Positions 15,007 to 48,548 of a DNA stretch of 64,000 nt are shown piece by piece. The translations under genes were made by a program, and so were the position numbers. The stretch covers positions 3,986-67,985 of the forward strand of contig JAUMWL010000002.1 of the NCBI GenBank assembly GCA_030529665.1, given 5' to 3'. A model generated the notes under the pieces. It made no database searches. It was not told the DNA's origin and saw nothing but the letters and a program-made list of their open reading frames with translations. Source of the DNA: Coriobacteriales bacterium (GTDB lineage: Bacteria > Actinomycetota > Coriobacteriia > Coriobacteriales > Atopobiaceae). Positions within the stretch are counted from its first letter, which is position 1. Every line of letters starts with the position of its first letter.

Positions 15007-17553
15007 CTACTCGGCTGCGAATTGCCGGGCGAAGGCGGGAGATGCGAACTTCACATACTGGCTTGTGTCCCTGATCTGCGGAAACTCCAACCCGTCTCCG
15101 ACGTTGATGGTCATGTTGTCGTTGGCTCCGTCAAATGCGTAGCTGATTGCAGTGATTGAGGAGGTGTCCCATCCGCTGATGTCGAGATTCATAAGCGATG
15201 TGCAGTCCTTGAACATGTGGCTGAAGGTCCTCAACGACCTTGTGTCCCATCCGCTTAGGTCGAGCTCCCTCAAGCTCCTGCAGCCCGAGAACATCATTCC
15301 GAAGGTGGTGGCGCTGCCCGTTCGCAGCTCCTGGATGCCTGTGATTTCCTCGAGCGACTCGCAGCCTGAGAACATGCCGCCCATGTCCTGTGCCCCGTCC
15401 GTGTCCATGCCTGAGATGGACACCGTCTTGAGACTGCTGCAGTCCGAGAAGAGGTGCCATGTGGATGTGAGGGGGTGGTCGAGCAGCCCTCCGAGACTGA
15501 CCGTCTCCAGGCTCGAGCATCCCGCGAACATACTGGAGGGATGGGCGCGTTGCGGCTGGGAATACAGATTGTCGGCCTTCGGCTCGTCTGGGATGACGAC
15601 CTCCCTGATTGAGACGCAACCGCGGAACATGCTTTCGGTCCAACGGGTTCTCTTCATGCTGAAGTCCTGCCTAATCCATTCAAGGGAGGCGCAGGATTCG
15701 AACATGCTGGAGAAGCCGGTTGCCTTGTCGGTCCTGAAGCATGTCAGATCAAGCCCCGTCAGCGACGAGCAGCCGGAGAACATGGAGTCGAGGTACTGGG
15801 CACCGGACGTGTCGAGCACGCAAGCGAGCCCTTCGCGATTGAGGCCGCCCAGGCGTACGCACCCCTCGAAGAGCTTCCTGAAGCTGGCAACTCTTCCAGT
15901 GCCAAGGACTAGCCCAGCTTCGGAGAGAGGTTCGAGGAACGACATCTGCCGCAGGTGCTTGCAGCCGGAGAACATGCGTTCCATCGTCCTGACGCTCCCG
16001 TAGCTCCAGGTGTTCGGAAGCATCAGCTCGGAAATGGATGCGCAGCCTCTGAACAGGTCCGCCATGTCGCTCACGCGTGACGTGTCGATGCCGGCCAGGT
16101 CGAATTGCCGGACATTCCCCATCCCCTCGAACCAGCCGTGCATCGTGAGGGGGACAAGCCGCTTCACGTCCCCTTCTCTGTCAACCAGCACCGGGGCGAC
16201 AACCCGCCTGACCTCTAAGGCTCGCGACGACCACGGGTGGCTTGCGGCCTCGCTGCCGACGTTGATGTGCCTCCATTCCGCGATGACGGTCCCATGGGTG
16301 TACTCCTCTCGCCTCCGCTCGGCTCGAAACTCTGCGCAAGAAGGGCCGATTACGAGGGTTCCGTCCTCATGGAGCCAGGCGAGCCCGTCCTGTGCCGTCC
16401 GGACGGTCTCTACGCGGTCGCCGTTCGCGTCGTCTGCCATCTTCATGACCAAGCTGCGGAATGACATCGGCGTCGATAGGCGAATGAGCTCAGAGATGAT
16501 TTCGCTGTCGAGTTCGTCTTCGAGGTGCTGGCCCTTCCCGAGGGGCGGACGAATCGAGCTCTCCGCATGCCCCGTCAGGAGCGTCTCCATGCGCCGCGCC
16601 GCGCCCATGTCCCCGAAGTACCTCTTTGTGGGGTGGTAGTTCGTGAGCGTCCGGGCGATGGAGCCCAGCTCCATGTCGGCGACGGTAATCGGACGCCTCT
16701 GTTGCGTACCTGCGTCCGATCCGAGCTTTTTGAGGAGGGGTACCATCTGGTACGCGAAGCCACCGCTTTGCTCCATGGCGTTCGCCGCGACGCTGCAGGA
16801 GTACTCCATGGATAGGCGTGCGTAGACCAGCAGTGCACCGATGCTGAACAGGTCCGTGGCCGGCTTCTTCCGGTACTCGAGCATGGTGCCGGCGATGCCC
16901 TCGCGCATCTCCGGGCTCTCGAACAGCTTGGTGCCGCGCTGGCCACGCGTCTTGAAGTCCTCTGGCGCCTTATTTCTCCACCTTTCGGTCTGCTCCGCGG
17001 TGCCGAAGTCGACTACGACGACCTCGGGATCGTCGAGAAAGCCCCGCCTCACTAGAATGTTGGTGTCGGAAAGATCTCTGTGAACCACGCCCCTCTTGTG
17101 ACACGCCTCGATGGCCTTGGCAATGCCCATCCCGAGCCGCATGACCCATATGCCCGGGACATCGGCGACGCTCTCCGAGCCGTCGGCAATGTCGTTCAGC
17201 AGCTCCCTGAGGGTCGGCCAGTCCGTGGGGTCGAAGTACTCCATAGCGAATGCCGGCCTCTCTCGCAAGCTGTCCGAAACGAGTGTGCCTTGGCCATATG
17301 CCGTCGGCACAGGCGGTCCCGGTTCGGGTCTAGTGTCGCCCGCACCCAGACTCCTGAGGCAGTCATACTCTTTGCGCAGGAGCTCGCCTGCCTCCTCGCT
17401 GATCTCGTGCATCGCCTTGACCGCTATGGTCTGCGGCTCGCCCGCTCCCTGCCTCCGAGCCTTGTAGATTTGCCCGAAGCTTCCGCTGTCTCTTATGGCG
17501 GCGCTCTCGACCTCATATGGGCAGCTTCCGTCAGAAAGCCTGAATACTGTCAT
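15007..17553 (-). CDS. Ser/Thr protein kinase fused to C-terminal BspA/DUF285-type leucine-rich repeats
   Basis: The kinase motifs are intact: IAVKAM (beta3 Lys), HKRGVVHRDLSDTNILV (HRD...N), VVDFGTA (DFG) and FESPEM (APE-like). The C-terminal half holds about 10 repeats of the type MFxGCxSLxxLDLSGWDTSxxxxxxxMF. No TM segment or signal peptide is visible. The start is set at ATG 17553, 7 nt after GAGGAGGA. Confidence 0.85.
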   Translation of the reverse strand: MTVFRLSDGSCPYEVESAAIRDSGSFGQIYKARRQGAGEPQTIAVKAMHEISEEAGELLRKEYDCLRSLGAGDTRPEPGPPVPTAYGQGTLVSDSLRERPAFAMEYFDPTDWPTLRELLNDIADGSESVADVPGIWVMRLGMGIAKAIEACHKRGVVHRDLSDTNILVRRGFLDDPEVVVVDFGTAEQTERWRNKAPEDFKTRGQRGTKLFESPEMREGIAGTMLEYRKKPATDLFSIGALLVYARLSMEYSCSVAANAMEQSGGFAYQMVPLLKKLGSDAGTQQRRPITVADMELGSIARTLTNYHPTKRYFGDMGAARRMETLLTGHAESSIRPPLGKGQHLEDELDSEIISELIRLSTPMSFRSLVMKMADDANGDRVETVRTAQDGLAWLHEDGTLVIGPSCAEFRAERRREEYTHGTVIAEWRHINVGSEAASHPWSSRALEVRRVVAPVLVDREGDVKRLVPLTMHGWFEGMGNVRQFDLAGIDTSRVSDMADLFRGCASISELMLPNTWSYGSVRTMERMFSGCKHLRQMSFLEPLSEAGLVLGTGRVASFRKLFEGCVRLGGLNREGLACVLDTSGAQYLDSMFSGCSSLTGLDLTCFRTDKATGFSSMFESCASLEWIRQDFSMKRTRWTESMFRGCVSIREVVIPDEPKADNLYSQPQRAHPSSMFAGCSSLETVSLGGLLDHPLTSTWHLFSDCSSLKTVSISGMDTDGAQDMGGMFSGCESLEEITGIQELRTGSATTFGMMFSGCRSLRELDLSGWDTRSLRTFSHMFKDCTSLMNLDISGWDTSSITAISYAFDGANDNMTINVGDGLEFPQIRDTSQYVKFASPAFARQFAAE

Positions 17554-17826
17554 CGCCATATCCTCCTCGCGCATTCGGCCGTGCTGCCACCACTGTAGCA
17601 AGGAGCTTGGACGAAGGCCAGAGATGCGGCGCCGCTCGAGGGCGCCCGGACCCTCCGGTGGCGTGACGTCTGTGGGGATGGCCTGTGCCTGAGACGTGGC
17701 GCCTCATGCTGGGGATGCGCAAATCGACACATTCGTCCTTGGTATAAACAGTGAGGAAGCGCGTGGGTCCCTCCTCCGAACCTCAGAAGGAGGAGATTAG
17801 GGCTGGCGTGGGAGACAGGCAAAGAG

Positions 17827-18960
17827 ATGGGAGACAGGGTGAAGAACGAACCGATTGTGGAGGGAAAGGGGTGGCGAGAGGCGTCCAACGTGCGCCTCGT
17901 GCATGAGGGGGACCTGTTGGACACCCTCGAGGCCATCGGTGCACGTACAGTCCGATATGAGGATCAATGGATGTGGCGACGCTTCGAACCCACGGACATC
18001 GCAGGCGACGAACAGCTGCCGAGCGATCTGCTTGATGGGTTGCGCACCTACAGAGACGGGCATCTGGGCCCCATCTATGTCGCGGGCGTAGGAAGGTACC
18101 TCATCAAATGCTATGACTGGGACCGTCCGGTGGCAAGGGTCGGAGAGCCGCGTATCGAATATGAGTTGCTGTGCCTCGGACAGCAACGTGGGGTCCAGAC
18201 GATGCCTAGGGCGTATGCCGCAGGATACCTCTCGGTAGGTAGAAAGGGCGAGGAGCGTGGCGGCCATGTGACCACGGCGGTGGTAGAGGAGCGCATCGAC
18301 GGGACCAGCATCGCGGAGCTGCTGCGGTTTGTCGCCCCTGGCGATTCGGCGCGCCGATGGCTCCCCGCCAAGGATGTCGCGCGGGTATCGCTCGCCCTTG
18401 CCGAGGCCATCGTGGACCTGCGCGTCCTCAACGTCTCCCACTGTAACCTCTCGGTAGACAACGTCATCGTGAGGGGAGGCGTTATCGGCGAGTCTCCCTC
18501 CGTGGCGCTCACGGGGTTCGAGCACGCCATGCCGATACAGCCCAGCCCGTTGGTCGACCCCGTGTACGGCATCGACCCCGTCTACTCGGCGCCCGAGAGT
18601 TTCTTCTCGCGAATCCCTGTCAACAGGGTCACACTCGCCTCGGACGTCTGGTCGCTCGGTGCCATCGTCACCACGATGCTCGTGGGCTCCGAGGCGTGGT
18701 CGTGGGGTGCCTCCACGCGCCTTCGGGGGTCGCTGGCTCTGAGCGACCGGGAAATGGACGAGCTCGACAGGATCAGGCGTGAACCCATCGACGTCGCCGG
18801 GCTCGTTGCCCGTCGCGCTAGAGACACCGATGGTGAGGGGGAGCTTATAGCCGAACTCGCTCGCGTCGTAGAGGCGTGCACCGAGTACCGCGCACGCGAT
18901 CGCATCGGGGCTGAGGAGCTTGTCAATGCCCTGAGAGGAGCGCTTCTGAGAGCTGGCTAG
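17827..18960 (+). CDS. Protein-kinase-fold protein, predicted pseudokinase
   Basis: The kinase landmarks are present but the catalytic residues are altered. VSHCNLSVDNVIV replaces HRDLKxxN (Asp to Asn) and LTGFEHA replaces DFG. YSAPESF (APE) and SDVWSLGAIV are retained. The 747-aa minus-strand ORF covering this region is Arg/Pro/Gly/His-rich and was rejected. Confidence 0.7.
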   Translation: MGDRVKNEPIVEGKGWREASNVRLVHEGDLLDTLEAIGARTVRYEDQWMWRRFEPTDIAGDEQLPSDLLDGLRTYRDGHLGPIYVAGVGRYLIKCYDWDRPVARVGEPRIEYELLCLGQQRGVQTMPRAYAAGYLSVGRKGEERGGHVTTAVVEERIDGTSIAELLRFVAPGDSARRWLPAKDVARVSLALAEAIVDLRVLNVSHCNLSVDNVIVRGGVIGESPSVALTGFEHAMPIQPSPLVDPVYGIDPVYSAPESFFSRIPVNRVTLASDVWSLGAIVTTMLVGSEAWSWGASTRLRGSLALSDREMDELDRIRREPIDVAGLVARRARDTDGEGELIAELARVVEACTEYRARDRIGAEELVNALRGALLRAG

Positions 18961-19044
18961 GGGTGCCGCTTTCTGGCTTGGGGCCAAGATGATGGTAGCA
19001 TTGCAAGTGGGCGTGCCACCATGCGGCAGTGAGGGGGACTTTTC

Positions 19045-21756
19045 ATGAATAACACGCTCACCACTCTGGGAACCCTTCTCGGAGGACTTGGAGGACGGAC
19101 GGGAGATAGCGGAAAAGAGCTGCTTGGGCGCATCGCCCCGGGAAACTCGTTGGACTCGGAGTCGCTCGCCTTGGTGATGGGAGAGCTCGCGATCCGTGGA
19201 GAGGATATACCGCTGGAAGTGTCGGAGAAGCGCGAGGAGGGGTTGGCGTGCGCCAAGAGGGCCTTGGTGTCGGCAGTCGTTGGGCTTGACCCCGGCTCCC
19301 GGCATCTCCCGCCTCGGATAGCGCCCGCCTACGAGGCCCTCCTCGAGCCCAGCGGGGAGCTCAAGAATCGCGTCGGCTTGGATGACCCCGTCGTGATGGA
19401 GGCGCTTCGCGAGGCGCTTGGTCGGCTCGAGCTGCAAGGGGTCGAGGAGCTTGATGGCAAGTGGCTCATCTCCGCGCTGTGCGAGGCCTATGCCAGGGAG
19501 TACCCGAATGACGGAAAAAAGCCGACGGCGGCAGGACGCCTCAGGGAGTGCGTGAAAGCCTGCCTGGCAATCGCTGACGATGACGAGCGCCGGTGCGAGG
19601 CCCTGTGCCTCTTCCTCATGGCCGCCTTGGTCGGTCCTGAAGGGGTCGAGCTGTGCCGACGTAACGGGGACGCCAGGGGCATGGGCCACTACACGACGAT
19701 GGGAACGCTGATCAGGGAAATCAGGTACCACTTCTGGGACGGCAGGGATGATGGTGAGGATACGTCCCAGATGTACCGATACCTCACCGGGCTGTGGAGG
19801 CGCAACAACTCCCAGGTCTCCAGGATGCTGAATCTTGCGCCCAAGGACGGGTGGCGCTGGGATGCCGGGGACCGCCTGGGGCAGAAGTGGAAATTGGAGA
19901 GCAACAAGAAGCATGACGTGGTCGACATAGCACGTGACGCGGTCGACTCGGGGAGGGTCAGCGGTCCCCTCGCCGCGGAATTCCTGGGGATGTTGACCAA
20001 AACGGGGAGGCTGAATTATAAGAAGTACGACTACAGACATCCGACGATTCTGGAAGTCGTGTACCGCGCGCTGGACTACGAGCGGAACGCGGGTAGGGAC
20101 TTCTACCTCATGGAGCTGGTCGATACCGTTAGGGAGGCCATCTCTGCCGTCGGGGCAGACGGCGACGAGGTGGCTGCGGTCCGAGAGCTGCTCGACGAGA
20201 GTGGATTGGCGGACGACGGCTGCTCGGAGCGTGCCCCCGAGGTACTGGACGTCATGCGAGCCCTGCTCGTTCGCTTCGGCGGGAGGCGTACCGACGACAG
20301 GGATTTGGTGAGCATCATAAACGGCTACATAAAGAAGAAGAAGGTCATCGGAAAGGTTGCCAAGGACTTTCGGGCTCTGCTGGAGGAGGACGGCACACTG
20401 AAGGAAGGCAAATCACCCTACGACTCCGCAGTCGCTGAGGCGGCGTACGTGGCGCTTGACTACGAGCTCAACAAGGTCAAGAGGCACGCCCCCTGGATGC
20501 CGACCGGCCTTCTCGTGTGTGGCAGCGAGCCGTTCCTCGAGCCGGTCTACCAGGCGTACGCGCGCGAGTACGCGCAGACGGCTGAGGAGATGGGGGAGCG
20601 CGTCCGCGAGATCAGGAGCGCGGTCGTCGAGTGCTCGACGCAGGACGATGCCTACTCCAGGGCATGTGCCATCATGAGGACGATTGTGATGGCCGCGCTC
20701 TTCGGCCCGGATGGCGTCACGTGCTGCAGGTTCCGTATGAGCACGGCACAGGGCCATGCGCGCGGCGCGAGGAGCGTCACTGTCGGCGTCGCCCTAAGGC
20801 AGCTCTACGAGGTGGGGGGCGCGTTCGCGCTAGGGTTCGAGAGGGAGTACGGTGTCGACGAGGCCGTGCGCATCGGGAGGGGCCTCGAGGGACCACACGC
20901 GTTCTCGCCAATTACCCTGGACGGAGGGTATCCCAGTGCAGTTGGCCGCCACCATGCGGACCTGGTGCCGTCCGCGGAGAGGGACGGCTCCATCTCGTGG
21001 TACCTCTGCCCCCGAGACACGGAATACGGAACGGCGATACGTCGCGTCGGGTCAAGTCCGAGGGCCGTCAGGGACGGCGAGCGAGCGAGGCTCATCCCGG
21101 GTGACGAGATATGGCTTGCTCCTAGAGTGCTGGGCGACGCCATGGTCCAGGACTACCTTCAGGGTGCAGTCTTGCTCTTCGAGGAGCTCCACTCGTATTG
21201 GCGCCGCAGGGGCGATGCCGTGGTGGGGGCAGACGTCGACTCAGGTGACGAGTCCGTGGAGGCGGTCGAGGGGTTGCCGAAAACGCTGCGCAGCGAGACG
21301 GAGCGCCTCGTCGAGGACGACGAGCGTGACCCCTCGGACGCCGTCGGCTTCTCGCTTGTCCTCGAGGGCTCGCCCAAGGCCCGCGTGTTCGTCTATGACG
21401 AGCTTCCTCTGCACCACGAGCTGGGCATGGATTGGGAGGGCGTGTCCATCGGGCGCGACAAGGAGGGTGTGGACGTGCCCGTCGGGCTGTATAACCCCAA
21501 CGCCGCAGTGAGCAGACAGCACGGTAGAATTATGCACGCGGGCGGCGTCGTGCGATACGAGGACCACTCACTGAACGGATCGCGCGTGGTGAGGGAGGAC
21601 GACCCAAGAAATCCCCAAAGCCGCTCGATACGCGGCGGCACCATCGAGCTGCGGAACAAAGACGTCATCTGCCTGCCGGACGCTCACACGCCTGACGTGC
21701 GGATAAGGTTCAACTACCTCTACGACCATCTCGCCGTCTCGGAGTACTACGAGTGA
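19045..21756 (+). CDS. 903-aa FHA-domain protein with an internally duplicated helical region
   Basis: The C-terminal FHA signature is VSIGRDKEG...AVSRQHGRI...DHSLNGSRV. A possible second, degenerate FHA-like segment lies upstream (AVGRHHADL...ISWYLC...YGTAI). An internal duplication is visible: CEAYAREYPNDG...CLFLMAALVGPEGVELCR matches YQAYAREYAQTAE...RTIVMAALFGPDGVTCCR. GAGGGGGA lies upstream of the ATG at 19045. Confidence 0.8.
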   Translation: MNNTLTTLGTLLGGLGGRTGDSGKELLGRIAPGNSLDSESLALVMGELAIRGEDIPLEVSEKREEGLACAKRALVSAVVGLDPGSRHLPPRIAPAYEALLEPSGELKNRVGLDDPVVMEALREALGRLELQGVEELDGKWLISALCEAYAREYPNDGKKPTAAGRLRECVKACLAIADDDERRCEALCLFLMAALVGPEGVELCRRNGDARGMGHYTTMGTLIREIRYHFWDGRDDGEDTSQMYRYLTGLWRRNNSQVSRMLNLAPKDGWRWDAGDRLGQKWKLESNKKHDVVDIARDAVDSGRVSGPLAAEFLGMLTKTGRLNYKKYDYRHPTILEVVYRALDYERNAGRDFYLMELVDTVREAISAVGADGDEVAAVRELLDESGLADDGCSERAPEVLDVMRALLVRFGGRRTDDRDLVSIINGYIKKKKVIGKVAKDFRALLEEDGTLKEGKSPYDSAVAEAAYVALDYELNKVKRHAPWMPTGLLVCGSEPFLEPVYQAYAREYAQTAEEMGERVREIRSAVVECSTQDDAYSRACAIMRTIVMAALFGPDGVTCCRFRMSTAQGHARGARSVTVGVALRQLYEVGGAFALGFEREYGVDEAVRIGRGLEGPHAFSPITLDGGYPSAVGRHHADLVPSAERDGSISWYLCPRDTEYGTAIRRVGSSPRAVRDGERARLIPGDEIWLAPRVLGDAMVQDYLQGAVLLFEELHSYWRRRGDAVVGADVDSGDESVEAVEGLPKTLRSETERLVEDDERDPSDAVGFSLVLEGSPKARVFVYDELPLHHELGMDWEGVSIGRDKEGVDVPVGLYNPNAAVSRQHGRIMHAGGVVRYEDHSLNGSRVVREDDPRNPQSRSIRGGTIELRNKDVICLPDAHTPDVRIRFNYLYDHLAVSEYYE

Positions 21757-21759
21757 GCG

Positions 21760-21789: not shown

Positions 21790-21819
21790 GGGGGCGCTAT
21801 CGCTCTCTCGACTGCCCCA

Positions 21820-22872: not shown

Positions 22873-22982
22873 GGTGGCTCTCCTTTCGATAGGTTCCATT
22901 TCCTCAACCTAGTTGTCTCATGACTGGCGCTCAGTCTTGGCGTATTCGCGCTCGTGTCCAGCTGACGCTGGTTGCCGGTTTG

Positions 22983-23963: not shown

Positions 23964-24083
23964 GCCTGTCCTCCCCAACACCTGTGTGTCGCTTCTGATA
24001 TTGCGCGTGCCGGCGTTACGGACCCATCCGACGGGGCGGTAGTCCCCAAGGCCTTACCCCATCGGATGGGCCATGCGCGCTAT

Positions 24084-24599: not shown

Positions 24600-24838
24600 C
24601 CTCAATCTTCCCTTCTCGATTGTCCGTTTGACTTGGCCGCATGGGCTAGCTTTCGCTTGTCCTCAGGGTAACGTAGGTGATATGCCTCTTTTGCGCATTG
24701 CGATGCGCCTTGATGGAGTCGTGATGCGGAGAGTGTGACTCCGGAGATCGGAGGCACAGCGCGTGCCACCATGCCGTCAGGTATTTGGCTACCACCAGGA
24801 CGGCGTGGCGGCACGCAGCTCTGAGCGAGATTCTCATC

Positions 24839-25249: not shown

Positions 25250-25289
25250 GTCTGTTCCCCTTTGCTTCTCACTGTCATGGATTGCGTAA

Positions 25290-25901: not shown

Positions 25902-25936
25902 ATTTCTTCCTTCCTATATAGGGTATGCATGCCTCA

Positions 25937-27151: not shown

Positions 27152-27168
27152 GCATGAGTGATGAGGCC

Positions 27169-28824
27169 CTAGTTGTCATCCGCGAAGAGGGCGTCGAGCT
27201 CCTCCTGTAGGCTCTGCAAGTCGAGGTCGTCGTGCGCAAGCGGTCCCTGAGGCTGTTCGTCTCCGTCGGGCCTGGCGCGCACCTCTTCTTCTGGGGTCTC
27301 GAGGGCGTCGTCTGCGGCGTCTTCCTTGGCGAGGATGGTGTCTATCATGTCGTCGAGGAGCCTCTCGGCGCCGATGTCCCACGGGCGTCCAGCGCACTCG
27401 TCCGCGTCGTGGAGGTCGAGCATCCGCTCAACCACGTCATCGCGACTGACCCTCGCCTTTCGTGGAGCGGGTGCGGCATGGAGGTCGAGGTGACGACCAT
27501 ACGCCTCAAGCGGTTCCATATGCGTGCCGACCATTGGCTTGCCGGCGACGCACACGTACGCGTCGCCCGGTCCCAGGCGCAGCATATGGCCTACGTCTAT
27601 TGCCCCTCCGCTCTTGAACTCAGCGTCACTTGCGATCTCATGAGAGATGTTGGACATATAAATGTTAACGGCAGCCTGTTCCAGAACCACGTTTGCCTCG
27701 GCGCGGGTGTAGAGGCCGCGTTCTAGGAATTGTGAGAAGGACTGCAGCGTGAGATACGCCGTGCAGTTTCGGCTGCGACCGGTGGCCATCAGGGCCAGTA
27801 TCTGCTCGCAGCGGGGTAGGCGCGCGAATTCGTCCACGATAAAGCACAGCCCGAACAGGTCCGTTCCTTCGAGATTGCGCCGTTCGAACTCGTCCATGTA
27901 CGATGCTGTCGCGTACTCGATCAGGTGGACGGTGTAGTTGCTGCACAGTTGGTTGTTGTCCGGGGAGATTACGTAGATGCAGGTGGGCCAACCGCTTCTG
28001 AAGAAGTCGGTCCTAAAGTCGATGTTCGAAGAAGCGGCCACGTGGCGTCCCGTGCTGGTGGCGTAGAAACCGAGCATGGCGCTTACCACGCTCTTGACGC
28101 ACGACCACGTGGTCTTTGCGTGTGTGAGGTCGAAGGAATCGAGTATGGCTTTAGGTGTCTCGTCGCCGAGGTGATCCGCGAGCCAACGCAGCTTGTTCTC
28201 GTCGTGAATGGCATCGCAGACGTCGGCGAGGGAGGGCTCCTCGTCCTCTGTCAGGCAGAGTGCCATGGAAACTGCCGAGATGAGATTCCACGAAACGGTT
28301 TCCCAGTAGGAATCCTTCTCGCTGTGGACCGAGGCGATCGTGGCGGCCTTGATCTTCGAGAGGGATGCCTCGGCCAGCGCGACATCACCCGTTTCCTTGA
28401 TGATTCTAAAAGCCTCGGTGAGCGGGCTCCAGCGTCCCTCACTCTTCGAGGACATGAGGTCGACGACCTTGACCTCGTAACCTTGGGACTTGAGGTACGG
28501 TGCGGTCTCGCGCCACATGGTGCGCTTGCTATCCACGATTACCATGGACTTTGGGTGCTCGCCCTTGCCGCGTCGGGTCCCGTTGACGATAACGGTGGGT
28601 TCGAGGCAGGAGCGCGTCTTGCCTGCGCCGGTGCGACCGACGACTACGGCGTGCTTCCCGGGAGGGGTACACCACGTGACGGACGAGGGACCGCCTCCGC
28701 AGACGAGGCCGGACGCCTTGCCGCCTTTGATGTCGTCCAGGGTATAGGGGACGAGGCCGGCGCTGTGTGGGTTGCTGGTCACGGTTTTCTTCGAGACCGC
28801 CTCTGCGTAACTGACAATCTGCAT
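27169..28824 (-). CDS. TraG/TraD/VirD4-family (type IV coupling protein-like) P-loop ATPase without TM segments
   Basis: Walker A is VVVGRTGAGKTRS and Walker B is LCFIVDEFARLP. This is followed by ALMATGRSRNCTAYLTLQSFSQ, as in T4CP/TraG-D_C modules. No N-terminal hydrophobic helices are visible. The ATG at 28824 is separated by 1 nt from the stop of the upstream gene. Confidence 0.75.
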   Translation of the reverse strand: MQIVSYAEAVSKKTVTSNPHSAGLVPYTLDDIKGGKASGLVCGGGPSSVTWCTPPGKHAVVVGRTGAGKTRSCLEPTVIVNGTRRGKGEHPKSMVIVDSKRTMWRETAPYLKSQGYEVKVVDLMSSKSEGRWSPLTEAFRIIKETGDVALAEASLSKIKAATIASVHSEKDSYWETVSWNLISAVSMALCLTEDEEPSLADVCDAIHDENKLRWLADHLGDETPKAILDSFDLTHAKTTWSCVKSVVSAMLGFYATSTGRHVAASSNIDFRTDFFRSGWPTCIYVISPDNNQLCSNYTVHLIEYATASYMDEFERRNLEGTDLFGLCFIVDEFARLPRCEQILALMATGRSRNCTAYLTLQSFSQFLERGLYTRAEANVVLEQAAVNIYMSNISHEIASDAEFKSGGAIDVGHMLRLGPGDAYVCVAGKPMVGTHMEPLEAYGRHLDLHAAPAPRKARVSRDDVVERMLDLHDADECAGRPWDIGAERLLDDMIDTILAKEDAADDALETPEEEVRARPDGDEQPQGPLAHDDLDLQSLQEELDALFADDN

Positions 28825-28825
28825 G

Positions 28826-29236
28826 TTAGTCTCCTTTCCGCTTGGCAGGTGATTGGGCAGGAAGCTCGCTGAACCCCGCTATCGCGAGGGCCTTCGCGAG
28901 CTCGGCCTTGCGCTCGGAAGACGCGGCGACCGCCACGGTGAGCTCGGGGCAGTCGAGGGCATCGCGCAGGTTGAGGCAGGCGAAGAGCGCATCGTCAGTG
29001 CAGGAGACTCCGAGTAGGCTTACCACGACGACGCCGTGGAAGCACTCGAGTGACAGTGCGTTGAGGCGCGTCGTCAGCGTGGCGGGGTTGTCGTTGACCC
29101 GATAGGGGAGGACGAGCAGGTTGTCTATGTCGTACTTGTCGAGTGCCTGGATGGTCTTCATGAGGGCGTCTACCGAGGTCACGCCCTCGTAGGCGAGTCC
29201 ATAGTTCGTTCCGTGGGATAGCTGCTGGTTGTCCAT
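28826..29236 (-). CDS. Hypothetical alpha/beta protein, first gene of the minus-strand operon
   Basis: The ORF is trimmed to ATG 29236 (MDNQQLSHG...), preceded by GGAAAGGAA. Alternating hydrophobic strands (LLVLPY, VVVVSLLG, LTVAVAAS) suggest a Rossmann-like fold. The stop TAA at 28828-28826 abuts the T4CP-like start. Confidence 0.5.
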   Translation of the reverse strand: MDNQQLSHGTNYGLAYEGVTSVDALMKTIQALDKYDIDNLLVLPYRVNDNPATLTTRLNALSLECFHGVVVVSLLGVSCTDDALFACLNLRDALDCPELTVAVAASSERKAELAKALAIAGFSELPAQSPAKRKGD

Positions 29237-29760
29237 TGACCGTTCCTTTCCTTCGCTGGATGCCTGGCTCATGGATGAATAATCATGGGAAAGGTTGTGT
29301 TTGTTGTTCAGTCATCTGTAACACCAGGTGACTGTGCGATGAACTGGTATTCGGTTTTCAAGGTTCTTCGTAGATGCTGTCTTGATTATGGGCTTCGCAC
29401 TTCGTGGCGTTTGCGCATTGAGTGCGTAGGTGGTGGCGTACCGGTCACATGATTAGTGCCCCGTCGCATCAGCTTCGGCTTTTCTAGGTCTTATGTAAGG
29501 CACGGCCATGTTGCATTGGGGTTGATATCCTCCTCTGCCTTACAGATATGTGCGCGGAGGAGGTGTCCATGCGCCATCAAACGCGTTTTCGAAGTGTCGA
29601 GAATCTTGCCTTGCACAGGGGTTCGACTGTAATGCGCAATCCCCGCAGTTTGAGGCGGGTAGCATCTTCAGCAAGATCAGAGCGCCTCGTTTGGGGACAA
29701 ATGATCGGAAATGGCCGCAGCCAATCAGGGTGACTGCGCATGACAGAAAGGGAGAGAGTG
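29237..29760. promoter_or_regulatory. Divergent intergenic control region between the two operons of the kinase/vWA supercluster
   Basis: This is about 520 nt without a convincing gene, noticeably more AT-rich than the flanks, and it separates oppositely oriented operons. It contains a strong SD (GGAGGAGG, 29557-29564) 5 nt upstream of an ATG at 29569. That ATG opens a 54-codon Arg-rich ORF ending at 29733. Confidence 0.45.
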
Positions 29761-30429
29761 ATGGCGATTGAGTTTCCTAGGGGCGGATTTGACAACGAGC
29801 TTCCCACCGGTGCGAAGAAGCTGCCCTGCGCGCTGCTCGTCGATACGTCGGGTTCGATGGGGGCTTACGAGGACGACCTTAAGGTGGGTGTTAAATCTCT
29901 GATCGATGCATTGCAGGGCGACTTTGCGACCGCCGCCGTGGTGGAGGTCATGCTCGTCTTCTTCGACGACAGCGCTCGTATCGTCCACCCCTTCACGAAC
30001 GTGCGCTCCCTCGAGGTCCCCGAAATCGAGACTGGCGGCACCACGCACATCTTCGAGGCCCTCGACCTGGCCTACTCGGAGATTCGAGTGCGCCAGGAGC
30101 AGTATAAGAAGTCTGGCATCAACAGCTATGCGCCGTTCATCGTAGTCCTCACCGACGGGCATCCCGTGGGTGACACCGACATGGGCATTGTGTCCGCGAT
30201 TCGCAAGCGCAACGAGGACAAGAAGCTCGTGCCCTACCCCTTCGCCATGGGCGGCGAGGCGGACGAGGCGCTCCTCAAGAGCCTGCGCAACGACGGGATG
30301 GCGTTCCGTGTCGACATGGAGAACCTCAAGGATATCTTCGAGTTCGTGAGCGTCTCCCTGTCCAGCATTGCAAGCGACGTGACGAGCGTGACGAACGACC
30401 AGCTCCCGGCGACGATTTCGATTATCTAG
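29761..30429 (+). CDS. TerY-type von Willebrand factor A (vWA) domain protein
   Basis: The MIDAS motif is LLVDTSGSM (DxSxS). Downstream are GGTTHIFEAL and FIVVLTDGHP, as in TerY-like vWA proteins. The start is set at ATG 29761 after AAGGGAGAGAG; an alternative ATG lies at 29740. Confidence 0.85.
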   Translation: MAIEFPRGGFDNELPTGAKKLPCALLVDTSGSMGAYEDDLKVGVKSLIDALQGDFATAAVVEVMLVFFDDSARIVHPFTNVRSLEVPEIETGGTTHIFEALDLAYSEIRVRQEQYKKSGINSYAPFIVVLTDGHPVGDTDMGIVSAIRKRNEDKKLVPYPFAMGGEADEALLKSLRNDGMAFRVDMENLKDIFEFVSVSLSSIASDVTSVTNDQLPATISII

Positions 30430-30515
30430 GAAAAGGGATTGGTCCACTCTGGTGCCGGCGTGTCCGATCCGTGTTGGTACCGTTTTGACCACGAAGTGAT
30501 AGGAGGTGGGATAAA

Positions 30516-31748
30516 GTGCTCTGCGAGTTCAGCGTAACCCAAAAGGGCGAGAGCCATATAAAGCATGACCTGCCCTGCCAGGACCACAGCGACTCGTTCG
30601 CCGTACCCGCTACGGGCGAGCCCAAGTACGTCGCCGCGATCGTGGCCGACGGCGTGGGAAGTGAGGAGTACAGCGACAAGGGGTCGAAGAGCGCTGTTGA
30701 CGTCGTGTCGAAGTGCCTGAAAGGGCGGCTTGCCAGTACTGAGTCGCACGACCACATGCTGGATGTCATCGAGGACGCCTTCGAGGAGGCGTTGGATGCC
30801 GCGCTGGATATGGCTGATGACATGCAGGAGCCCTTCACTAAGTTTGCCACGACTCTCACGGTCGCCGTATTCGACGGCCGGACGCTTTGGTACGGGCATG
30901 CGGGGGATGACGGCATCGTAGCCATGCGGCGTGACGGCACGTATGGGATGGTGACCGAGCGGCACGAGGGTGATCTGGCAAACAGCGTCGTCCCGTTCGG
31001 ATCTCGGCGTTGGCAATTCGGCGAGGAGGCAGACGTAGCTTCCTGCGTGCTGATGACCGACGGCATCTTGGATTACTGCGTCAAGGACCAGCTCGAGGGA
31101 AACCGGGTAAAGCTTCCGTTCCTCAAGCCCCTACTCTATGCGGTGCTGGAGACGGTTGATGAGGTGCAGACGGCACGGGCGGATTGGGACGAGTTCCTGA
31201 TGGCATCGAGGGACGAGGGCCAGGCAGACGGAGACACCGTAGTACGGACGGTGTTCCGAGACCTCGTGAGGGACGATCTTTCAATAGCGCTGCTCTCCAA
31301 CCCCGAGGCGGTCGCAAACCTGCCGGCGTACTCTTTCGACCTTGATGCTTGGAATGCGGACTCGGACTATTACGAGGCCGCACGCGAGGAAGGCCTGGCG
31401 GAGTTGGACCGGGTTCGGCTCGAGGAGGATTCCGAGTATCGTGAGCGGGTTCGGCTCGGGAAGGAACGCCATCCTCGTCAGGGCAGGCAACTGCGCTCGT
31501 CCTCGATGGAGGGCGTGGCGCCAGCTACCGATGCGAAGCACGATTCCGCTATGCCAGTTCCGCTAGGAGTTCCTGCAAAACGCGAGGCGCAGGCAAGGGA
31601 AGCGAGTGCGCCTTGCTCCTTGGGTGACCAGGGAGGTGGCGAGTGGCCTCAGGTGTTAGCCGACGGCGCATGCGTCGTCGTCAGAGGAATCGGCATCATC
31701 GGCGACGCGATCGAGGATGCGGTGCAGGAGATGTTCAAGAAGACGTAA
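30516..31748 (+). CDS. PP2C-family Ser/Thr phosphatase with a C-terminal extension
   Basis: PP2C landmarks are PCQDHSD, AAIVADGVGSEEYSDKGS, WYGHAGDDGIV and VLMTDGILDY. The GTG start at 30516 is preceded by AGGAGGTGG. Confidence 0.8.
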   Translation: MLCEFSVTQKGESHIKHDLPCQDHSDSFAVPATGEPKYVAAIVADGVGSEEYSDKGSKSAVDVVSKCLKGRLASTESHDHMLDVIEDAFEEALDAALDMADDMQEPFTKFATTLTVAVFDGRTLWYGHAGDDGIVAMRRDGTYGMVTERHEGDLANSVVPFGSRRWQFGEEADVASCVLMTDGILDYCVKDQLEGNRVKLPFLKPLLYAVLETVDEVQTARADWDEFLMASRDEGQADGDTVVRTVFRDLVRDDLSIALLSNPEAVANLPAYSFDLDAWNADSDYYEAAREEGLAELDRVRLEEDSEYRERVRLGKERHPRQGRQLRSSSMEGVAPATDAKHDSAMPVPLGVPAKREAQAREASAPCSLGDQGGGEWPQVLADGACVVVRGIGIIGDAIEDAVQEMFKKT

Positions 31749-31827
31749 GCCCTTAGAAACGGCCGGCGTCGTGGCGCTTCGACCCGCTCCGCTTCTTTGT
31801 TGGCATGTTGATGACAGGAGGTTTGTT

Positions 31828-33279
31828 GTGGTTACCTATTTTGGCGAGAATGGAGCTTCCGCGAATGGTCGGGGCGTCACGTACGTTCTGGGCGACCAAA
31901 TCAAGCACGGCACCGAGGGAACGGTGTACAGCATCGAGGGAAATCCCGGTATGGTCGCCAAGGTGTATGCGCAGAAGCGCTACGACGAGGTATCGGATCG
32001 ACGACAGGGGCGTCCCGACGGGCGCGCATTCATGCATGCCAAGCTGCGTGAGATGGTTCGTCAAGGAAAGTCCGTGAACTCCCAGCAATGGTCCTCAGTC
32101 CATGGTCACAGCTTCCTCGCTTGGCCTGCCGACACGCTTGTGGACGCGAACGGACGCTTCTGCGGATATGTGATGCCGCGCGTGAAGGGAAAGGGCAACC
32201 TCTACGCCGCAATAGACGAGGGAGCACACGACGGCTTCTTCGGCCCGGGAAACTACACCTGGAGAACCGCAATCAAGATTGCGAAGCAGCTGGCGTATGT
32301 GGTCGGAAAGCTCCACGACGCCGGAATCGTGGTAGGCGACTTCAACCCGCAGAACTTCCTGATTGACAGCAACGGTTTCGTCTCCTTCTGTGACACCGAC
32401 TCGTACACCATCTCGCCGAAATACAAGACCTTTGTGGCCTTTCCCGGCTATGTGGCCCCCGAACTGCAGGGAAAACCCTGGTCGATGACGAGGCCGGACT
32501 GCCAGTTCACGAAAGAGAGCGACGTGTTCAGCCTCTCCTGCCTCATATTTCAGCTGCTTACCGGCAAACACCCGTTCAACGGAATCGTGATGAGGAGCGG
32601 AATGAACTCCGTCTCTCAATCGAGCGAGGAGCGAAACATCACCAACGGGGACTGCCCGTACGTCCATCATGGCATAGCGGTGCGACAGCCAGATGCTCCG
32701 GACGTGTACGGCCTGCTTTTTCCGCCCGAGCTGCGCGACCTATGCAACAGGTGCTTTGACTACACGGTGAAAGACGCTAGGAACCCGAAAACGATAAGCC
32801 GACGTCCGACCGCAGCGGACTGGTACTTCGCGCTCGATGCCCTTAGTGAAACGGGCTACTCCGGAAACAGGCTCACTTGCTGCAAAAGCAATGCGCAGCA
32901 TTACTACCTTCCTGGCGCTGGCATAAGCAGAAGCAGTCGGTGCCCTTGGTGCGAGCGTGACGAGCATTTCGCGAGCGCGAGCGCCGCGTTTCGCTCTGGC
33001 GCGGACGGAGGTGGTATCGCACCAAACACTGCCACCTCAGTGATCTCGTCTCCGAACATGGTAAGCGCGAAGAATGCGGGTGGCCCTGTAGTCCAGAAGC
33101 CCAATGCGAACACGCAGACGACTCAGGGCTACGGACTTACCCCCAATGCAGCCAAGTTCTGCAAGACCGCGCTTAAGTGGGCTGCGTGTGCTGCTGTCGT
33201 TGTTACGTTGATCGCGCTCGTCCTCAACGTGTGGCCGATAATCCCTATCGCTCTCATTTTGGCATGCTTGCGAAAATGA
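31828..33279 (+). CDS. Atypical protein kinase with a C-terminal zinc ribbon and TM anchor (kinase of the TerY-P-type triad)
   Basis: Motifs are GTEGTVY (G-loop-like), MVAKVY (beta3 Lys), LHDAGIVVGDFNPQNFLI (D...N catalytic loop without HRD), FCDTDSY (DFG replaced by DTD) and YVAPEL (APE). These are followed by CCKSN...CPWC and a hydrophobic C-terminus (AACAAVVVTLIALVLNVWPIIPIALILACL). The GTG start at 31828 follows AGGAGG by 7 nt. Confidence 0.8.
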   Translation: MVTYFGENGASANGRGVTYVLGDQIKHGTEGTVYSIEGNPGMVAKVYAQKRYDEVSDRRQGRPDGRAFMHAKLREMVRQGKSVNSQQWSSVHGHSFLAWPADTLVDANGRFCGYVMPRVKGKGNLYAAIDEGAHDGFFGPGNYTWRTAIKIAKQLAYVVGKLHDAGIVVGDFNPQNFLIDSNGFVSFCDTDSYTISPKYKTFVAFPGYVAPELQGKPWSMTRPDCQFTKESDVFSLSCLIFQLLTGKHPFNGIVMRSGMNSVSQSSEERNITNGDCPYVHHGIAVRQPDAPDVYGLLFPPELRDLCNRCFDYTVKDARNPKTISRRPTAADWYFALDALSETGYSGNRLTCCKSNAQHYYLPGAGISRSSRCPWCERDEHFASASAAFRSGADGGGIAPNTATSVISSPNMVSAKNAGGPVVQKPNANTQTTQGYGLTPNAAKFCKTALKWAACAAVVVTLIALVLNVWPIIPIALILACLRK

Positions 33280-33347
33280 CTATCGCGGCGCTTTGACGGT
33301 TCCTACACGGGATGTTCAGGATGTTCGGAGCGCGCGAAGGGAGTAAT

Positions 33348-34004
33348 ATGCGAAGAGTTCAGCTTGCTACCGCAATCGGCGACATCGCGACGGTTCGCGG
33401 GGTCGTCCAGAATTACACCAACACGTCTGTCTCCGGCGGGACGTATCGCAGGTCATCCCCACGGCGTCTCTTTGAGGCCCTGTGCTACGGGCAGCACGTT
33501 GAGGATTGCTTGCACATGTTTGTATTGCGCACAGCCAATCCGGACCCTGCCGTGGGTGGGTATCTAAACGTGCCGATAAACGTTCATGGGACCATTTCGG
33601 GTGGCGTTGCATTGACGAACGGCGTGAATGTGGAAGCAACCGGCAGGTACAGAAACGGCGTGCTGATGGCAAGTCTCATCGAAGTCGAATGCGGATCACG
33701 GCGCACCGAAGTGCAGTTTCAGCACGACGCTGGCGAAGCATTGCGAGTCTTTGGCCCCCCCACCATCGTACTCATTTTGCTGCTAAGCCTCGGGTCTGGG
33801 GATGGGCTTCTTGGTGGTTTACGGCAGTTTACGTCGGCATGGCTGGTGACAACGTTCGTGCTTGCTGTCTTGTGGGCTGCCCTAATCTCCCGCCTGGGAG
33901 TGGTGCCCCTTCTTCTGCTGTGCGGCAACGGAAGAGGTGGAATGAGGACGATGTTACTGCTCATTCTGGTCATCGGCCTCTTTATAACAATGGCGTATTG
34001 GTGA
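33348..34004 (+). CDS. Membrane protein (soluble N-terminal domain plus 3-4 C-terminal TM helices), last gene of the triad operon
   Basis: ATG 33348 follows GAAGGGAG. The hydrophobic C-terminal third includes PPTIVLILLLSLG, AWLVTTFVLAVLWAALI and MLLLILVIGLFITMAYW. Confidence 0.55.
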   Translation: MRRVQLATAIGDIATVRGVVQNYTNTSVSGGTYRRSSPRRLFEALCYGQHVEDCLHMFVLRTANPDPAVGGYLNVPINVHGTISGGVALTNGVNVEATGRYRNGVLMASLIEVECGSRRTEVQFQHDAGEALRVFGPPTIVLILLLSLGSGDGLLGGLRQFTSAWLVTTFVLAVLWAALISRLGVVPLLLLCGNGRGGMRTMLLLILVIGLFITMAYW

Positions 34005-34008
34005 CGTC

Positions 34009-48542: not shown

Positions 48543-48548
48543 AGGGGG

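Follow-up and report, generated by a model that had tools for sequence, protein, structure and literature searches.

The 15.0-34.0 kb region of the window (the whole 64-kb stretch of Coriobacteriales bacterium DNA that was analysed) is probably part of a defence (conflict) island assembled from separately inherited or mobile cassettes, not a single system. On this reading, which we favour with some reserve, the cassettes are a TerY-P-type triad (29.4-34.15 kb), a five-gene module (24.84-29.24 kb) and lineage-specific companions (15.0-24.6 kb). The conserved unit is most plausibly the module (24839-29236), an uncatalogued and undescribed combination of two ATPases and chaperone-like proteins. 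The comparison covers 11 distinct loci related to this one, all in other Coriobacteriia, of which eight carry the module, one a part of it and two the triad; many of these loci are short metagenomic contigs with flanks of at most 10 kb. An earlier, sequence-only reading had treated the region as one phospho-signalling supercluster. Its inventory holds for nearly all genes and domains, except that its FHA call is statistically unsupported and one of its pseudokinases is recognised through paralogy. The domain content is thus real, and the co-location of the genes over 19 kb is what a defence island would lead one to expect.

The module lies on the minus strand and seems to comprise two sub-blocks, gene A with a transmembrane-less T4CP-like ATPase, and a CbbX/EccA-type AAA+ ATPase with proteins D and E. 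Gene A (28826-29236) encodes a 136-aa alpha/beta protein directly upstream of the T4CP gene, with no match in Pfam, PDB, PADLOC or NCBIfam. The T4CP-like ATPase (27169-28824) has a VirD4/TrwB/Cagbeta fold according to Pfam (T4SS-DNA_transf, 1.4e-23; TraG-D_C; TrwB_AAD_bind) and to an AF2 model of pLDDT 77 (Foldseek: Cagbeta, 1.5e-15; TrwB, 1e-12). It contains no hydrophobic segment and no transmembrane domain, as had been proposed. The protein also carries an insert that is all-alpha, and its C-terminal tail is acidic. Its Walker A and B motifs (GxxGxGKT, DE) are intact, with residues invariant in 13/13 T4CP homologues, and the tails of clade-I members bear conserved motifs reminiscent of docking signals. 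The product name given to this protein by NCBI is conjugative transfer protein.

The second ATPase (25937-27091; annotated ATG at 27151) belongs to the CbbX/SpoVK/EccA clade of AAA+ proteins, in agreement with the earlier assignment. Its PDB matches are CbbX (1.1e-39) and EccA1 (3.2e-34), and its NCBIfam matches are SpoVK (3.7e-51), CbbX (1.7e-44) and EccA (4e-42), each under its own cutoff. Fold and family searches gave no match for the N-domain of about 145 aa, and the C-terminus carries an invariant GF. Gene D (25290-25901) encodes a 203-aa protein resembling YbjN and T3SS class I chaperones. The best Foldseek matches to its AF2 model (pLDDT 74) are DR_1245 of the YbjN family, SrcA, VecA, CesT and SycE, a weak fold match at E 0.03-0.9. 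Pfam YbjN hits 4 of 43 D-family members (best 1.7e-10), and the family forms 64 clusters at 50% identity. D also has a disordered, acidic linker, and an amphipathic helix (the tail motif) is conserved at its C-terminus. Gene E (24839-25249; 136 aa) stands beside D at every D-bearing locus and probably encodes a distant YbjN-like paralogue of it, as suggested by an hhalign comparison of the two families (E 2.4e-4 over 97 columns; controls gave 0.49-0.76). No effector domain and no transmembrane segment was found in any of the five core genes.

All five genes occur together in nine lineages (eight besides the window) at 40-76% identity, with T4CP identity to the window falling from 75% to 40% and identity ranks concordant among the five genes. 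Gene order is permuted into three different arrangements, and two pairings are invariant: A abuts the T4CP gene in all nine lineages, with a 1-nt gap in the window and an overlap in relatives, and D abuts E wherever both are present. The partial locus (L025-27) has the AAA+ gene, D and E without A or the T4CP gene. Gaps within the module measure 1, 17, 35 and 40 nt, the first two as previously described; the 17-nt gap becomes 77 nt from the alternative GTG start at 27091, which homologue alignment favours over the annotated one. Synteny in other genomes covers part of the 19-kb cluster, not the whole of it. In four lineages (L004, L014/L005, L009 and L007) the neighbours of the module include giant proteins of 3,100-3,270 aa, and clade III keeps a fixed companion set of its own in three lineages. 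A non-orthologous PP2C gene is divergent from the module in L012 and L025, a kinase gene accompanies the PP2C gene in L025, and a kinase-TIR gene lies nearby in L001. The recurrence of non-orthologous PP2C, kinase and FHA-like genes near the module may reflect a looser, thematic link to phospho-signalling.

The neighbouring cassette (29418-34154) is encoded on the plus strand and begins with a TerY-like vWA gene (29761-30429; Pfam VWA, 3.1e-11), whose MIDAS reads DTSGS (DxSxS). A PP2C_2 phosphatase with a C-terminal extension (30516-31748; 7.2e-30) and an atypical Ser/Thr kinase (31828-33279; Pkinase, 1e-15) complete the triad. The kinase has a zinc-ribbon-like CC...CPWC motif and a C-terminal transmembrane helix; its annotated product is 483 aa long, and the helix occupies residues 481-520 of the long ORF. 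Downstream are a gene for a multi-pass membrane protein (33312-34004), recognised by its hydrophobic segments, and a hairpin (34090-34144; inverted repeat I3, 24-nt arms, 83% complementary, 7-nt loop) that lies between the triad operon and a DEDDh gene, which converge on it. These features were all found as claimed. TerY-P is a triad of vWA, PP2C and STK-ZnR found beside many defence systems, and a related form of it has stand-alone defence activity (PMC11090510). Orthologues of the vWA, PP2C and kinase proteins occur at L021 (74%, 54% and 61%) and L024 (68%, 50% and 59%). The membrane protein has homologues at none of the related loci and is not conserved with the triad; its slot holds a transglutaminase-like gene in L021 and a TIR/beta-propeller gene in L024.

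On the other side of the module lie the companions, beginning with a kinase fused to DUF285/BspA-type LRRs (15007-17601, minus; DUF285, 1.1e-35; Pkinase, 9e-14; LRR_5, 2e-13), classed as an active Ser/Thr kinase from its HRD and DFG motifs. The pseudokinase psK1 (17827-18960, plus; Pkinase, 6.4e-9), in which HRD is replaced by HCN and DFG by GFE, is the first gene of a two-gene operon and is followed by a gene for a 903-aa protein (19045-21756, plus) that is internally duplicated and FHA-like at its C-terminus. The previous assignment of an FHA domain to this protein was not confirmed: Pfam, NCBIfam and PDB sequence searches returned no match of any kind, and the hints of FHA are a 'faint' precomputed match in a homologue and a GR...SRQH...NGS motif recognised by eye. 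The earlier call of two pseudokinases stands for psK1; the 359-aa psK2 (21820-22899, minus), for which Pfam and PDB searches were empty, is probably a pseudokinase by paralogy, matching a psK1 homologue in BLAST (25% identity, E 5e-10). The PHP phosphoesterase (22983-23981, minus; Pfam PHP, 8.3e-11) is by its sequence matches of TrpH/RNase AM (RNM) or pAp-phosphatase type and a facultative companion of the module; these matches include 3e0f (3.6e-14), the 5'-3' exoribonuclease 7ug9 (1.2e-12) and NCBIfam RNase RNM (1.2e-23, under cutoff). PHP adjoins the module in L018 (69%) and, on the opposite side, in L001 (67%), and is solitary in L021 (46%). TM173 (24084-24605, minus), a single-pass membrane protein with hydrophobic residues 17-47 and no family match, is separated from gene E by 233 nt. 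The only homologues of the kinase-LRR (61%), psK1 (63%), the 903-aa protein (55%), psK2 (61%) and TM173 (41%) are in L018-L020.

These distributions bear directly on the proposal of a single phosphorylation-gated machine spanning all 19 kb, in which the triad and an FHA/pseudokinase layer switch on both motors. In its favour, the genes all lie side by side, uninterrupted by any housekeeping gene, the triad operon is divergent from gene A at a distance of about 500 bp, and TM-less FtsK-type and SpoVK-type ATPase cassettes are known to adjoin TerY-like vWA genes (PMC11090510). However, triad and ATPases never co-occur elsewhere, a lack of synteny that the sequence-only reading had itself named as evidence against the pairing: the triad is absent at 8/8 other module loci and at the partial one, the module is absent at both other triad loci, and, as flanks are at most 10 kb at many of the loci, a triad farther off may exist. 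Moreover, in the closest relative, L013 (75% identity), the 4.7-kb cassette of triad and membrane-protein genes is cleanly replaced by an M23 peptidase gene, with DNA homology ending at 29417, 180 bp upstream of gene A, and restarting at 34155 at the DEDDh gene. In L018 (74% identity) the slot is filled by transglutaminase-like and DnaJ_C genes. The divergent intergenic region (29237-29760) holds the left edge of this variable slot, and neither promoter nor terminator motifs are significantly over-represented in it. The single machine is thus very unlikely, being largely refuted by the synteny data, and the triad is more probably a mobile cassette in a variable slot, an independent neighbouring TerY-P-type system and not the controller of the module. 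A clade-specific functional unit of 14 kb (15.0-29.2 kb), in which the active kinase and pseudokinase scaffolds would regulate the ATPases and the triad would have no part, is unlikely but less so. This block is complete and collinear in L018-L020 despite 41-77% amino acid and about 66-75% DNA identity, PHP accompanies the module in L001 as well, and the fixed companions of clade III offer a parallel. Yet just one other lineage has the companions together with the module, so that shared ancestry of the whole island segment explains their presence equally well. The kinase, pseudokinase, FHA-like and TM companions are missing from the other seven module lineages (L001, which has PHP, L004, L012, L013 and clade III), and the companions are set off from the tightly packed core by 83-233 nt gaps and by opposite strands.

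Two further explanations concern the ATPases themselves. The module could serve protein export with T4SS-, T7SS- or T3SS-like logic, as the arm that recruits substrates in the cytosol: D/E and the EccA-like AAA+ protein would bring a large effector or toxin to the T4CP-like ATPase, itself docked on a membrane partner. Its components follow a logic like that of T7SS (EccA AAA+, chaperone and FtsK-type ATPase) and of T4CP-adaptor complexes, giant proteins adjoin it in four lineages, and the tail motifs of D and of clade-I T4CPs look like docking signals. However, the core genes lack transmembrane segments, genes for a channel, WXG100 proteins or a T4SS are not conserved near the module, the giant neighbours bear AAA_16/AAA_22 STAND-type NTPase domains and not toxin domains, and T4CP mutants without the transmembrane domain are transfer-deficient (PMC7431656), which leaves an export function quite unlikely. 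The T4CP-like gene is very unlikely to be the coupling-protein gene of an integrative mobilisable or conjugative element, left over or hitch-hiking, with the remaining genes as unrelated cargo. Its best family matches are indeed conjugative (NCBIfam conju_CD1115, 1.4e-30; Pfam T4SS-DNA_transf), in line with its NCBI name, but the NCBIfam score of 106 bits falls far short of the 250-bit cutoff and identity to the closest plasmid T4CPs is 24% or less. Relaxase, VirB4 and other T4SS genes are absent from the 64-kb window and from every related locus, as expected if no ordinary conjugative element is involved, and the same holds for integrase and tRNA genes and flanking repeats. In addition, the gene keeps the same four partners and invariant catalytic motifs across 40-76% identity.

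The genomic surroundings agree with the conflict role first suggested for the region. TIR, STAND, RyR, PARG, radical-SAM and methylase genes crowd the whole 64-kb window, and TIR, STAND, RyR, DarT-NADAR, DEDDh or TatD genes are neighbours at all loci compared. PADLOC returned generic P-loop or kinase matches and none specific to the ATPase part, which is consistent with the earlier view that this part is uncatalogued; the MADS models underlying the mad8 match were built from HHpred/PDB alignments. By guilt by association with these island genes, the five-gene module is probably conflict-related.

A working scheme for the module can be inferred from its likeness to known ATPase and chaperone systems. 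The chaperone-like D/E pair would hold a client protein, and a hexamer of the CbbX-type AAA+ protein would grip D by its conserved acidic tail and terminal helix, and perhaps the T4CP-like protein by its tail, much as CbbX grips the RbcL tail. This grip would lead to remodelling or release of the client, in the manner of T3SS and T7SS ATPases that strip or engage chaperone-substrate complexes. The coupled partner A would restrain a soluble T4CP-like hexamer, as CagZ restrains Cagbeta, and this hexamer may bind or translocate nucleic acid or nucleoprotein of an invading element. The variable neighbours would then serve as lineage-specific effectors or sensors, namely a PHP nuclease or phosphoesterase in this bacterium and the STAND-like NTPases of 3,100-3,270 aa in other clades.

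The 19 kb of signalling and ATPase genes at 15007-34004 is a juxtaposition of cassettes. One of these is a five-gene module of two ATPases and chaperone-like proteins (24839-29236, minus strand), which is conserved, uncatalogued and so far restricted to Coriobacteriia. The window covers almost the whole of a 68-kb contig from a Coriobacteriales MAG, whose NCBI proteins (locus tags Q4A07_00475 to _00505) include exact (100%) matches to the T4CP-like protein, D and the kinase. An ORF listing with Pfam, NCBIfam and PDB searches reproduced the gene list of the sequence-only reading. The module consists of A (28826-29236), an alpha/beta protein with no family match; a T4CP-like ATPase (27169-28824) matching T4SS-DNA_transf (1.4e-23), TraG-D_C and TrwB_AAD_bind; an AAA+ ATPase of the CbbX/SpoVK/EccA type (25937-27091 or 25937-27151); D (25290-25901), which is YbjN-like or T3SS-chaperone-like; and E (24839-25249), placed by its alignment to the D-family profile. 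Beyond E, the minus strand continues with a single-TM protein (24084-24605), a PHP protein of the TrpH/RNase AM type (22983-23981) and a 359-aa protein, psK2 (21820-22899). The plus strand carries the triad of vWA, PP2C and atypical kinase and a membrane protein (29761-34004), followed by a hairpin with 24-nt arms (34090-34144), as well as a pseudokinase (psK1) with a 903-aa protein (17827-21756). An active kinase with DUF285/LRR repeats occupies 15007-17601 on the minus strand.

Homologues of the T4CP-like protein are rare. A word-indexed search of 5.8 billion proteins returned 14 clear relatives, at 38-100% identity, and a further three at about 23% that are marginal, and the 185,579 species-representative genomes contain two loci, both from Coriobacteriia. 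The T4CP profile gave one distant match in the JGI metagenomes and none in IMG/VR. The D-family profile is too diverse for a pattern scan of wider collections, and a homology search with a fused A, E and kinase query returned solely kinase relatives. The contigs of T4CP-like, D and triad kinase homologues were compared, and all window proteins were searched by BLAST against the ORFs of these related loci (L001-L027, from other Coriobacteriia). A, the T4CP-like gene, the AAA+ gene, D and E occur together in eight other lineages, in which the T4CP-like protein is 75% (L013), 74% (L018-20), 66% (L001-3), 54% (L004), 49% (L012), 43% (L007), 40% (L014/L005/L006, Collinsella sp. An7) and 40% (L009-11) identical. 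Identity ranks are concordant over the five genes, as co-inheritance predicts.

The module is found in three gene orders: A-T4CP-AAA-D-E, AAA-D-E-A-T4CP and D-E-AAA-A-T4CP. In every case A adjoins the T4CP-like gene, often overlapping it, and D adjoins E. The loci L025-27 carry AAA-D-E at 68-76% identity without A or the T4CP-like gene within about 7 kb, and the module is therefore composed of two separable sub-blocks. In L025 (8767-17276; also L026 and L027), this sub-block is followed by a 141-aa gene, which has no match, two HSP70-family genes and, encoded on the other strand, a PP2C and a kinase. Spacing in the window agrees with the boundary drawn by comparison, with gaps of 1, 17 or 77, 35 and 40 nt inside the module versus 83-233 nt to the downstream genes.

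The triad follows a different distribution. Its orthologues (vWA, PP2C and kinase, 50-74% identity) occur together in L021-23 and L024 without any module gene, and are absent from all module loci compared. The synteny check called for by the sequence-only reading, seeded here on the T4CP-like protein, D and the kinase, thus finds the five-gene module syntenic elsewhere and the triad separate. The proposal that the triad and an FHA/pseudokinase layer control both ATPases as a single device is not supported on this point, since triad and module never share a locus in the relatives compared. DNA homology between the window and L013 reaches 29417, 180 bp upstream of A, stops, and resumes at 34155. 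The slot so defined holds an M23-peptidase/ricin gene in L013 and transglutaminase-like and DnaJ_C genes in L018; the triad occupies a variable slot. The membrane protein at 33312-34004 has no homologue in any related locus. The AAA+ gene of L013 (8413-9237), from the 75%-identical relative, is split across three reading frames, either as a pseudogene or through an error in assembly.

Companion genes on the other side of the module are lineage-specific. The TM protein, PHP, psK2, 903-aa protein, psK1 and kinase-LRR genes are collinear with the module in L018-20 alone (41-77% amino acid identity). PHP also adjoins the module in L001, on its other side, and occurs without the module in L021. Upstream of PHP and the module in L001 (1-7951, Atopobiaceae) are genes for a 1,256-aa Tubulin_2 protein and for 748-aa and 827-aa proteins, the 748-aa one with a weak vWA match (2.5e-4); these may form another conflict cassette. 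The three lineages of clade III keep a 3,200-aa AAA_16/22 NTPase, a gene of about 265 aa and two divergent genes of about 550 and 640 aa. A weakly related 3,098-aa AAA_16/ATPase_2 giant lies divergently upstream of the module in L004 (clade I). These giants (L014 43-9843, with equivalents in L009, L004 and L007) are 3,100-3,270 aa long with a single AAA_16/AAA_22 NTPase domain and stand next to the module; in clade III (L014/L005, L009, L007) they are immediately upstream of it and co-directional. None has a PADLOC match, and they may be lineage-specific partners of the module.

Two members of the proposed FHA/pseudokinase layer also lose definition. The FHA domain assigned to the 903-aa protein (19045-21756) gave no Pfam match even at E<=5, and its C-terminal 136 aa gave no PDB match; the L018 homologue has a single "faint" precomputed FHA match. 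This protein contains an internal duplication, in which ...AYAREY...MAAL(V/F)GP(E/D)GV..C(R/C)R... appears twice, about 350 residues apart. The 359-aa protein had been called a pseudokinase; Pfam and PDB searches are negative, and BLAST provides its sole link to kinases, a match at 25% identity to the family of the adjacent pseudokinase (psK1). The observed gene content of the 19-kb cluster was largely right; the interpretation unifying it was mostly wrong.

The entire window looks like a defence island. RyR, PP2C and 494-aa, TIR/beta-propeller, TIR-STAND-TPR, ChW, DEDDh and DarT-NADAR genes recur, shuffled, around module and triad, which is a signature of a shared island gene pool. The Pfam and ORF scan of the window finds a DEDDh exonuclease among its other island genes. 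At 756-6200, a C5 cytosine methylase precedes a protein of 1,324 aa with a weak N-terminal match to LmuA/DUF4297 (3e-5), and the pair may be a restriction- or Lamassu-like unit. An 898-aa TIR and beta-propeller (PQQ_2) protein is encoded at 37034-39730. Its homologues in L001, L012 and L013 lie no more than 10 kb from the module, and in L024 a homologue comes straight after the triad kinase. Two STAND-type NTPases are encoded at 40670-45010 (N-terminal DUF4062) and 60285-63548 (TIR-NTPase-TPR); a homologue of the latter (51% identity) lies just downstream of the L012 module. A microbial PARG gene adjoins two radical-SAM genes and a gene for a 286-aa protein, all of them on the minus strand (47655-51646). 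The segment 52722-56655 encodes an RyR-domain protein, a short PP2C (the second in the window) and the 494-aa protein. This cassette recurs in L012 (1168-6888), L021 (13771-17432), L024 (327-4548) and L025 (6101-8507), in shuffled positions beside either module or triad, and homologues of its last protein give a weak FHA match; the cassette is possibly a small unit of its own, for signalling or defence. No integrase gene was present in the window ORFs scanned, no tRNA gene was found in the window, an Rfam search gave no match, and a promoter/terminator scan gave motif counts at or below shuffled expectation. None of the flanking repeats was convincing as a mark of cassette ends.

The TerY-P triad was defined by Anantharaman, Iyer & Aravind 2012, and an OB-fold variant of it is the stand-alone defence system of Gao et al. 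2020 (PMC11090510 summarises both). Judged by its domains, the triad at 29761-33279 fits the definition in that summary, with a putative zinc ribbon. Its vWA matches Pfam VWA (3.1e-11) and VWA_2 (6.4e-10) and contains DTSGS, a DxSxS MIDAS motif, and the PP2C (PP2C_2, 7.2e-30) and kinase (Pkinase, 1e-15) are encoded on the same strand. The order vWA-PP2C-kinase is the same in L021 and L024 at 50-74% identity. The triad shares with TerY-P a co-directional TerY-like vWA, PP2C and Ser/Thr kinase, and possibly the zinc ribbon, in the form of a Cys-rich motif at the C-terminal end of the kinase; its three genes are co-inherited (L021, L024) beside other defence genes. The zinc-ribbon-like motif, CC...CPWC, was seen by eye and has no supporting profile match; no OB fold was detected. 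Unlike TerY-P, the window kinase ends in a TM helix and is followed by the non-conserved membrane protein, and a defence role for the triad is putative. PADLOC models gave no match to the triad vWA and PP2C at E<=0.01 and generic ones to the kinase (mad6, PD-T4-6). The PADLOC library presumably includes TerY-P models.

The T4CP-like protein lacks an N-terminal TM domain; it was correctly read as TM-less, with no hydrophobic segment anywhere in it. Across 13 homologues, the Walker A (GRTGAGKT) and Walker B (DEF) motifs do not vary, and an all-alpha insert in its nucleotide-binding domain (NBD) matches TrwB_AAD_bind (5.7e-8). In the AF2 model (pLDDT 77) the N-terminus is built of short strands, the helices inserted in the NBD span roughly residues 136-275, and the acidic tail is disordered. 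Foldseek places Cagbeta (1.5e-15) and TrwB (1e-12) ahead of VirB4, HerA, DndH and DotL. In clade-I homologues the acidic tail carries an LxxxLDxLF motif (27169-27330 covers the C-terminus in the window). The AAA+ ATPase matches CbbX (1.1e-39) and EccA1 (3.2e-34), and among NCBIfam models SpoVK (3.7e-51), CbbX (1.7e-44) and EccA (4e-42), all below their equivalog cutoffs, so it is a member of the CbbX/SpoVK/EccA clade and not an orthologue of any. Profile searches assigned no family to its N-domain of about 145 aa. Its last residues, (I/V)GF (25937-25945), are invariant in all seven aligned homologues; they recall the C-terminal docking motifs of other ring ATPases.

D weakly resembles a YbjN/T3SS class I chaperone fold in its AF2 model (pLDDT 74). 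Foldseek matches to DR_1245 (YbjN family), SrcA, VecA, CesT and SycE are weak (E 0.03-0.9), and the top matches are all YbjN or T3SS chaperones. Pfam YbjN matches 4 of 43 D-family members, with a best value of 1.7e-10 and 0.0064 for the L005 homologue; the window D has no direct Pfam match. Among 1.84 billion representatives the family forms 64 clusters at the 50% identity level. In nearly all its members a Gly/Asp-rich acidic linker leads into a short amphipathic helix such as SLEEVRDLL or DLAALLARLL; the terminal pattern is (S/T)LxxhRxLL. The D tail and the clade-I T4CP tail could be shared docking or threading signals. E aligns to the D-family profile with an hhalign E of 2.4e-4 over 97 columns, versus 0.49-0.76 for two control profiles, which makes it a probable second protein of the YbjN-like type. 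When A, E and the AAA+ N-domain were searched as profiles against PDB sequences, the best E was 0.4, and no relatives of A outside the module were detected in Pfam, PDB, NCBIfam or PADLOC.

Several known systems share parts with the module. With T4CPs (TrwB; Cagbeta-CagZ, PDB 8dol; DotL-IcmSW), it shares an NBD with an all-alpha insert, an acidic C-terminal tail and, as in T4CP-regulator/adaptor pairs, a small partner gene, A, translationally coupled to the ATPase gene. Membership of an ordinary conjugative element, which an adjacent relaxase/VirB4/T4SS set would have indicated, was rejected: no such genes lie in the 64-kb window or any related locus, and the nearest plasmid T4CPs are at most 24% identical. 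An N-terminal TM domain, present in most T4CPs and required for transfer (PMC7431656), distinguishes these from the module ATPase, which also falls below the NCBIfam cutoff (conju_CD1115, the best model, 106.5 bits vs 250). Partner A, unlike T4CP regulators, is an alpha/beta protein matching no known family. The cytosolic apparatus of T7SS (ESX) likewise pairs an EccA/CbbX-like AAA+ ATPase with chaperone-like proteins and an FtsK/HerA-superfamily ATPase. In the module, the second ATPase is of a single-domain T4CP type and not a multi-domain EccC/EssC, the AAA+ N-domain is not recognisably TPR, and the chaperones are YbjN-like and not EspG; EccC/EssC multi-domain ATPase, WXG100 and EccB/D/E Pfam domains are missing from the window ORFs scanned. 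T3SS class I chaperones and YbjN resemble D, and probably E, in fold, and the module encodes these beside hexameric ATPases that could strip or unfold clients. Unlike in T3SS there is no injectisome, and D has a long acidic tail and terminal helix absent from classical class I chaperones.

Among defence systems, type III-A CoCoNuT loci offer a thematic precedent in their ATPase cassettes. The passages of Bell et al. 2024 (PMC11090510) that treat them describe TM-less FtsK/EssC-like, SpoVK-type AAA+ and VirB4-like ATPases beside TerY-like vWA genes, define the type by a CnuBC core resembling McrB/McrC and by ATPase cassettes between two TerY-like vWA genes, and judge the cassettes possibly stand-alone. 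The window scan finds no McrB/McrC domains and one vWA gene alone, which is not conserved with the module; CnuH/E and CARF genes are also lacking. The module ATPases belong to other subfamilies, and both types stand in one module together with YbjN-like proteins. PADLOC-DB 2.0 returned weak matches of mad8 to the T4CP-like protein (1.2e-10), of mad6 to the kinases and of IetA to the AAA+ ATPase (1.4e-7), a marginal one to D (0.008) and nothing for A or E. These matches are generic and none is specific to the module, so in PADLOC-DB 2.0 the system is not already catalogued. MADS models are built from HHpred/PDB alignments and are therefore generic. MADS requires Mad6, Mad7, Mad8 and a methyltransferase/specificity module (preprint), and this identity was rejected with mad7 and the methylase missing; unlike in MADS or IetAS, the cluster holds neither a methyltransferase/specificity subunit nor an IetS protease. 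Menshen was rejected as unrelated, its T4SS-DNA_transf fusion occurring in three NsnA proteins alone. The conflict-systems paper of Kaur et al. 2020 makes no mention of TraG, VirD4, CbbX, SpoVK or YbjN, and full-text literature searches returned no description of the module's gene combination.

The composition of the module parallels the cytosolic arms of secretion systems, with a chaperone pair, an EccA/CbbX-type AAA+ ATPase and a coupling ATPase, in a defence-island setting without a channel. The chances of a conflict role for the module are about even. CbbX engages the tail of RbcL. By analogy, D and E would hold a client, and the AAA+ ATPase would engage the conserved D tail such that the client is remodelled or released. 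Under the control of A (compare CagZ-Cagbeta, PDB 8dol), a soluble ring of the T4CP-like protein would bind or translocate invader nucleic acid or nucleoprotein, and variable neighbours would serve as effectors or sensors. This detailed mechanism is unlikely. A broader proposal, advanced tentatively and still rather doubtful, is that the module represents a new class of anti-mobile-element system, in which a soluble coupling-protein homologue would act as sensor or decoy for DNA or nucleoprotein entering the cell, such as conjugative relaxase-DNA or phage genome ends. The CbbX-type AAA+ ATPase would grip the acidic tail of the YbjN-like pair and thereby free or activate an effector specific to the lineage. 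The sub-blocks [A-T4CP] and [AAA+-D-E] would be exchangeable engines for differing sensors and effectors, such as the PHP nuclease, the giant STAND NTPase or kinase/pseudokinase sets.

The 19-kb "supersystem" gives way to a cleaner target, a 4.4-kb five-gene module conserved across Coriobacteriia. Where kinase, PP2C and FHA genes crowd together in these islands, they are independent cassettes that have been shuffled and not one signalling circuit, which is a caution for genome scans. Lacking a secretion channel, the module joins chaperone-like proteins to two ATPases, a soluble one of the conjugation type and one of the unfoldase type. If it serves in defence or against plasmids, secretion-system parts would here be put to intracellular use in a new way, and the immune repertoire of gut Actinomycetota, which is poorly charted, would gain a member.
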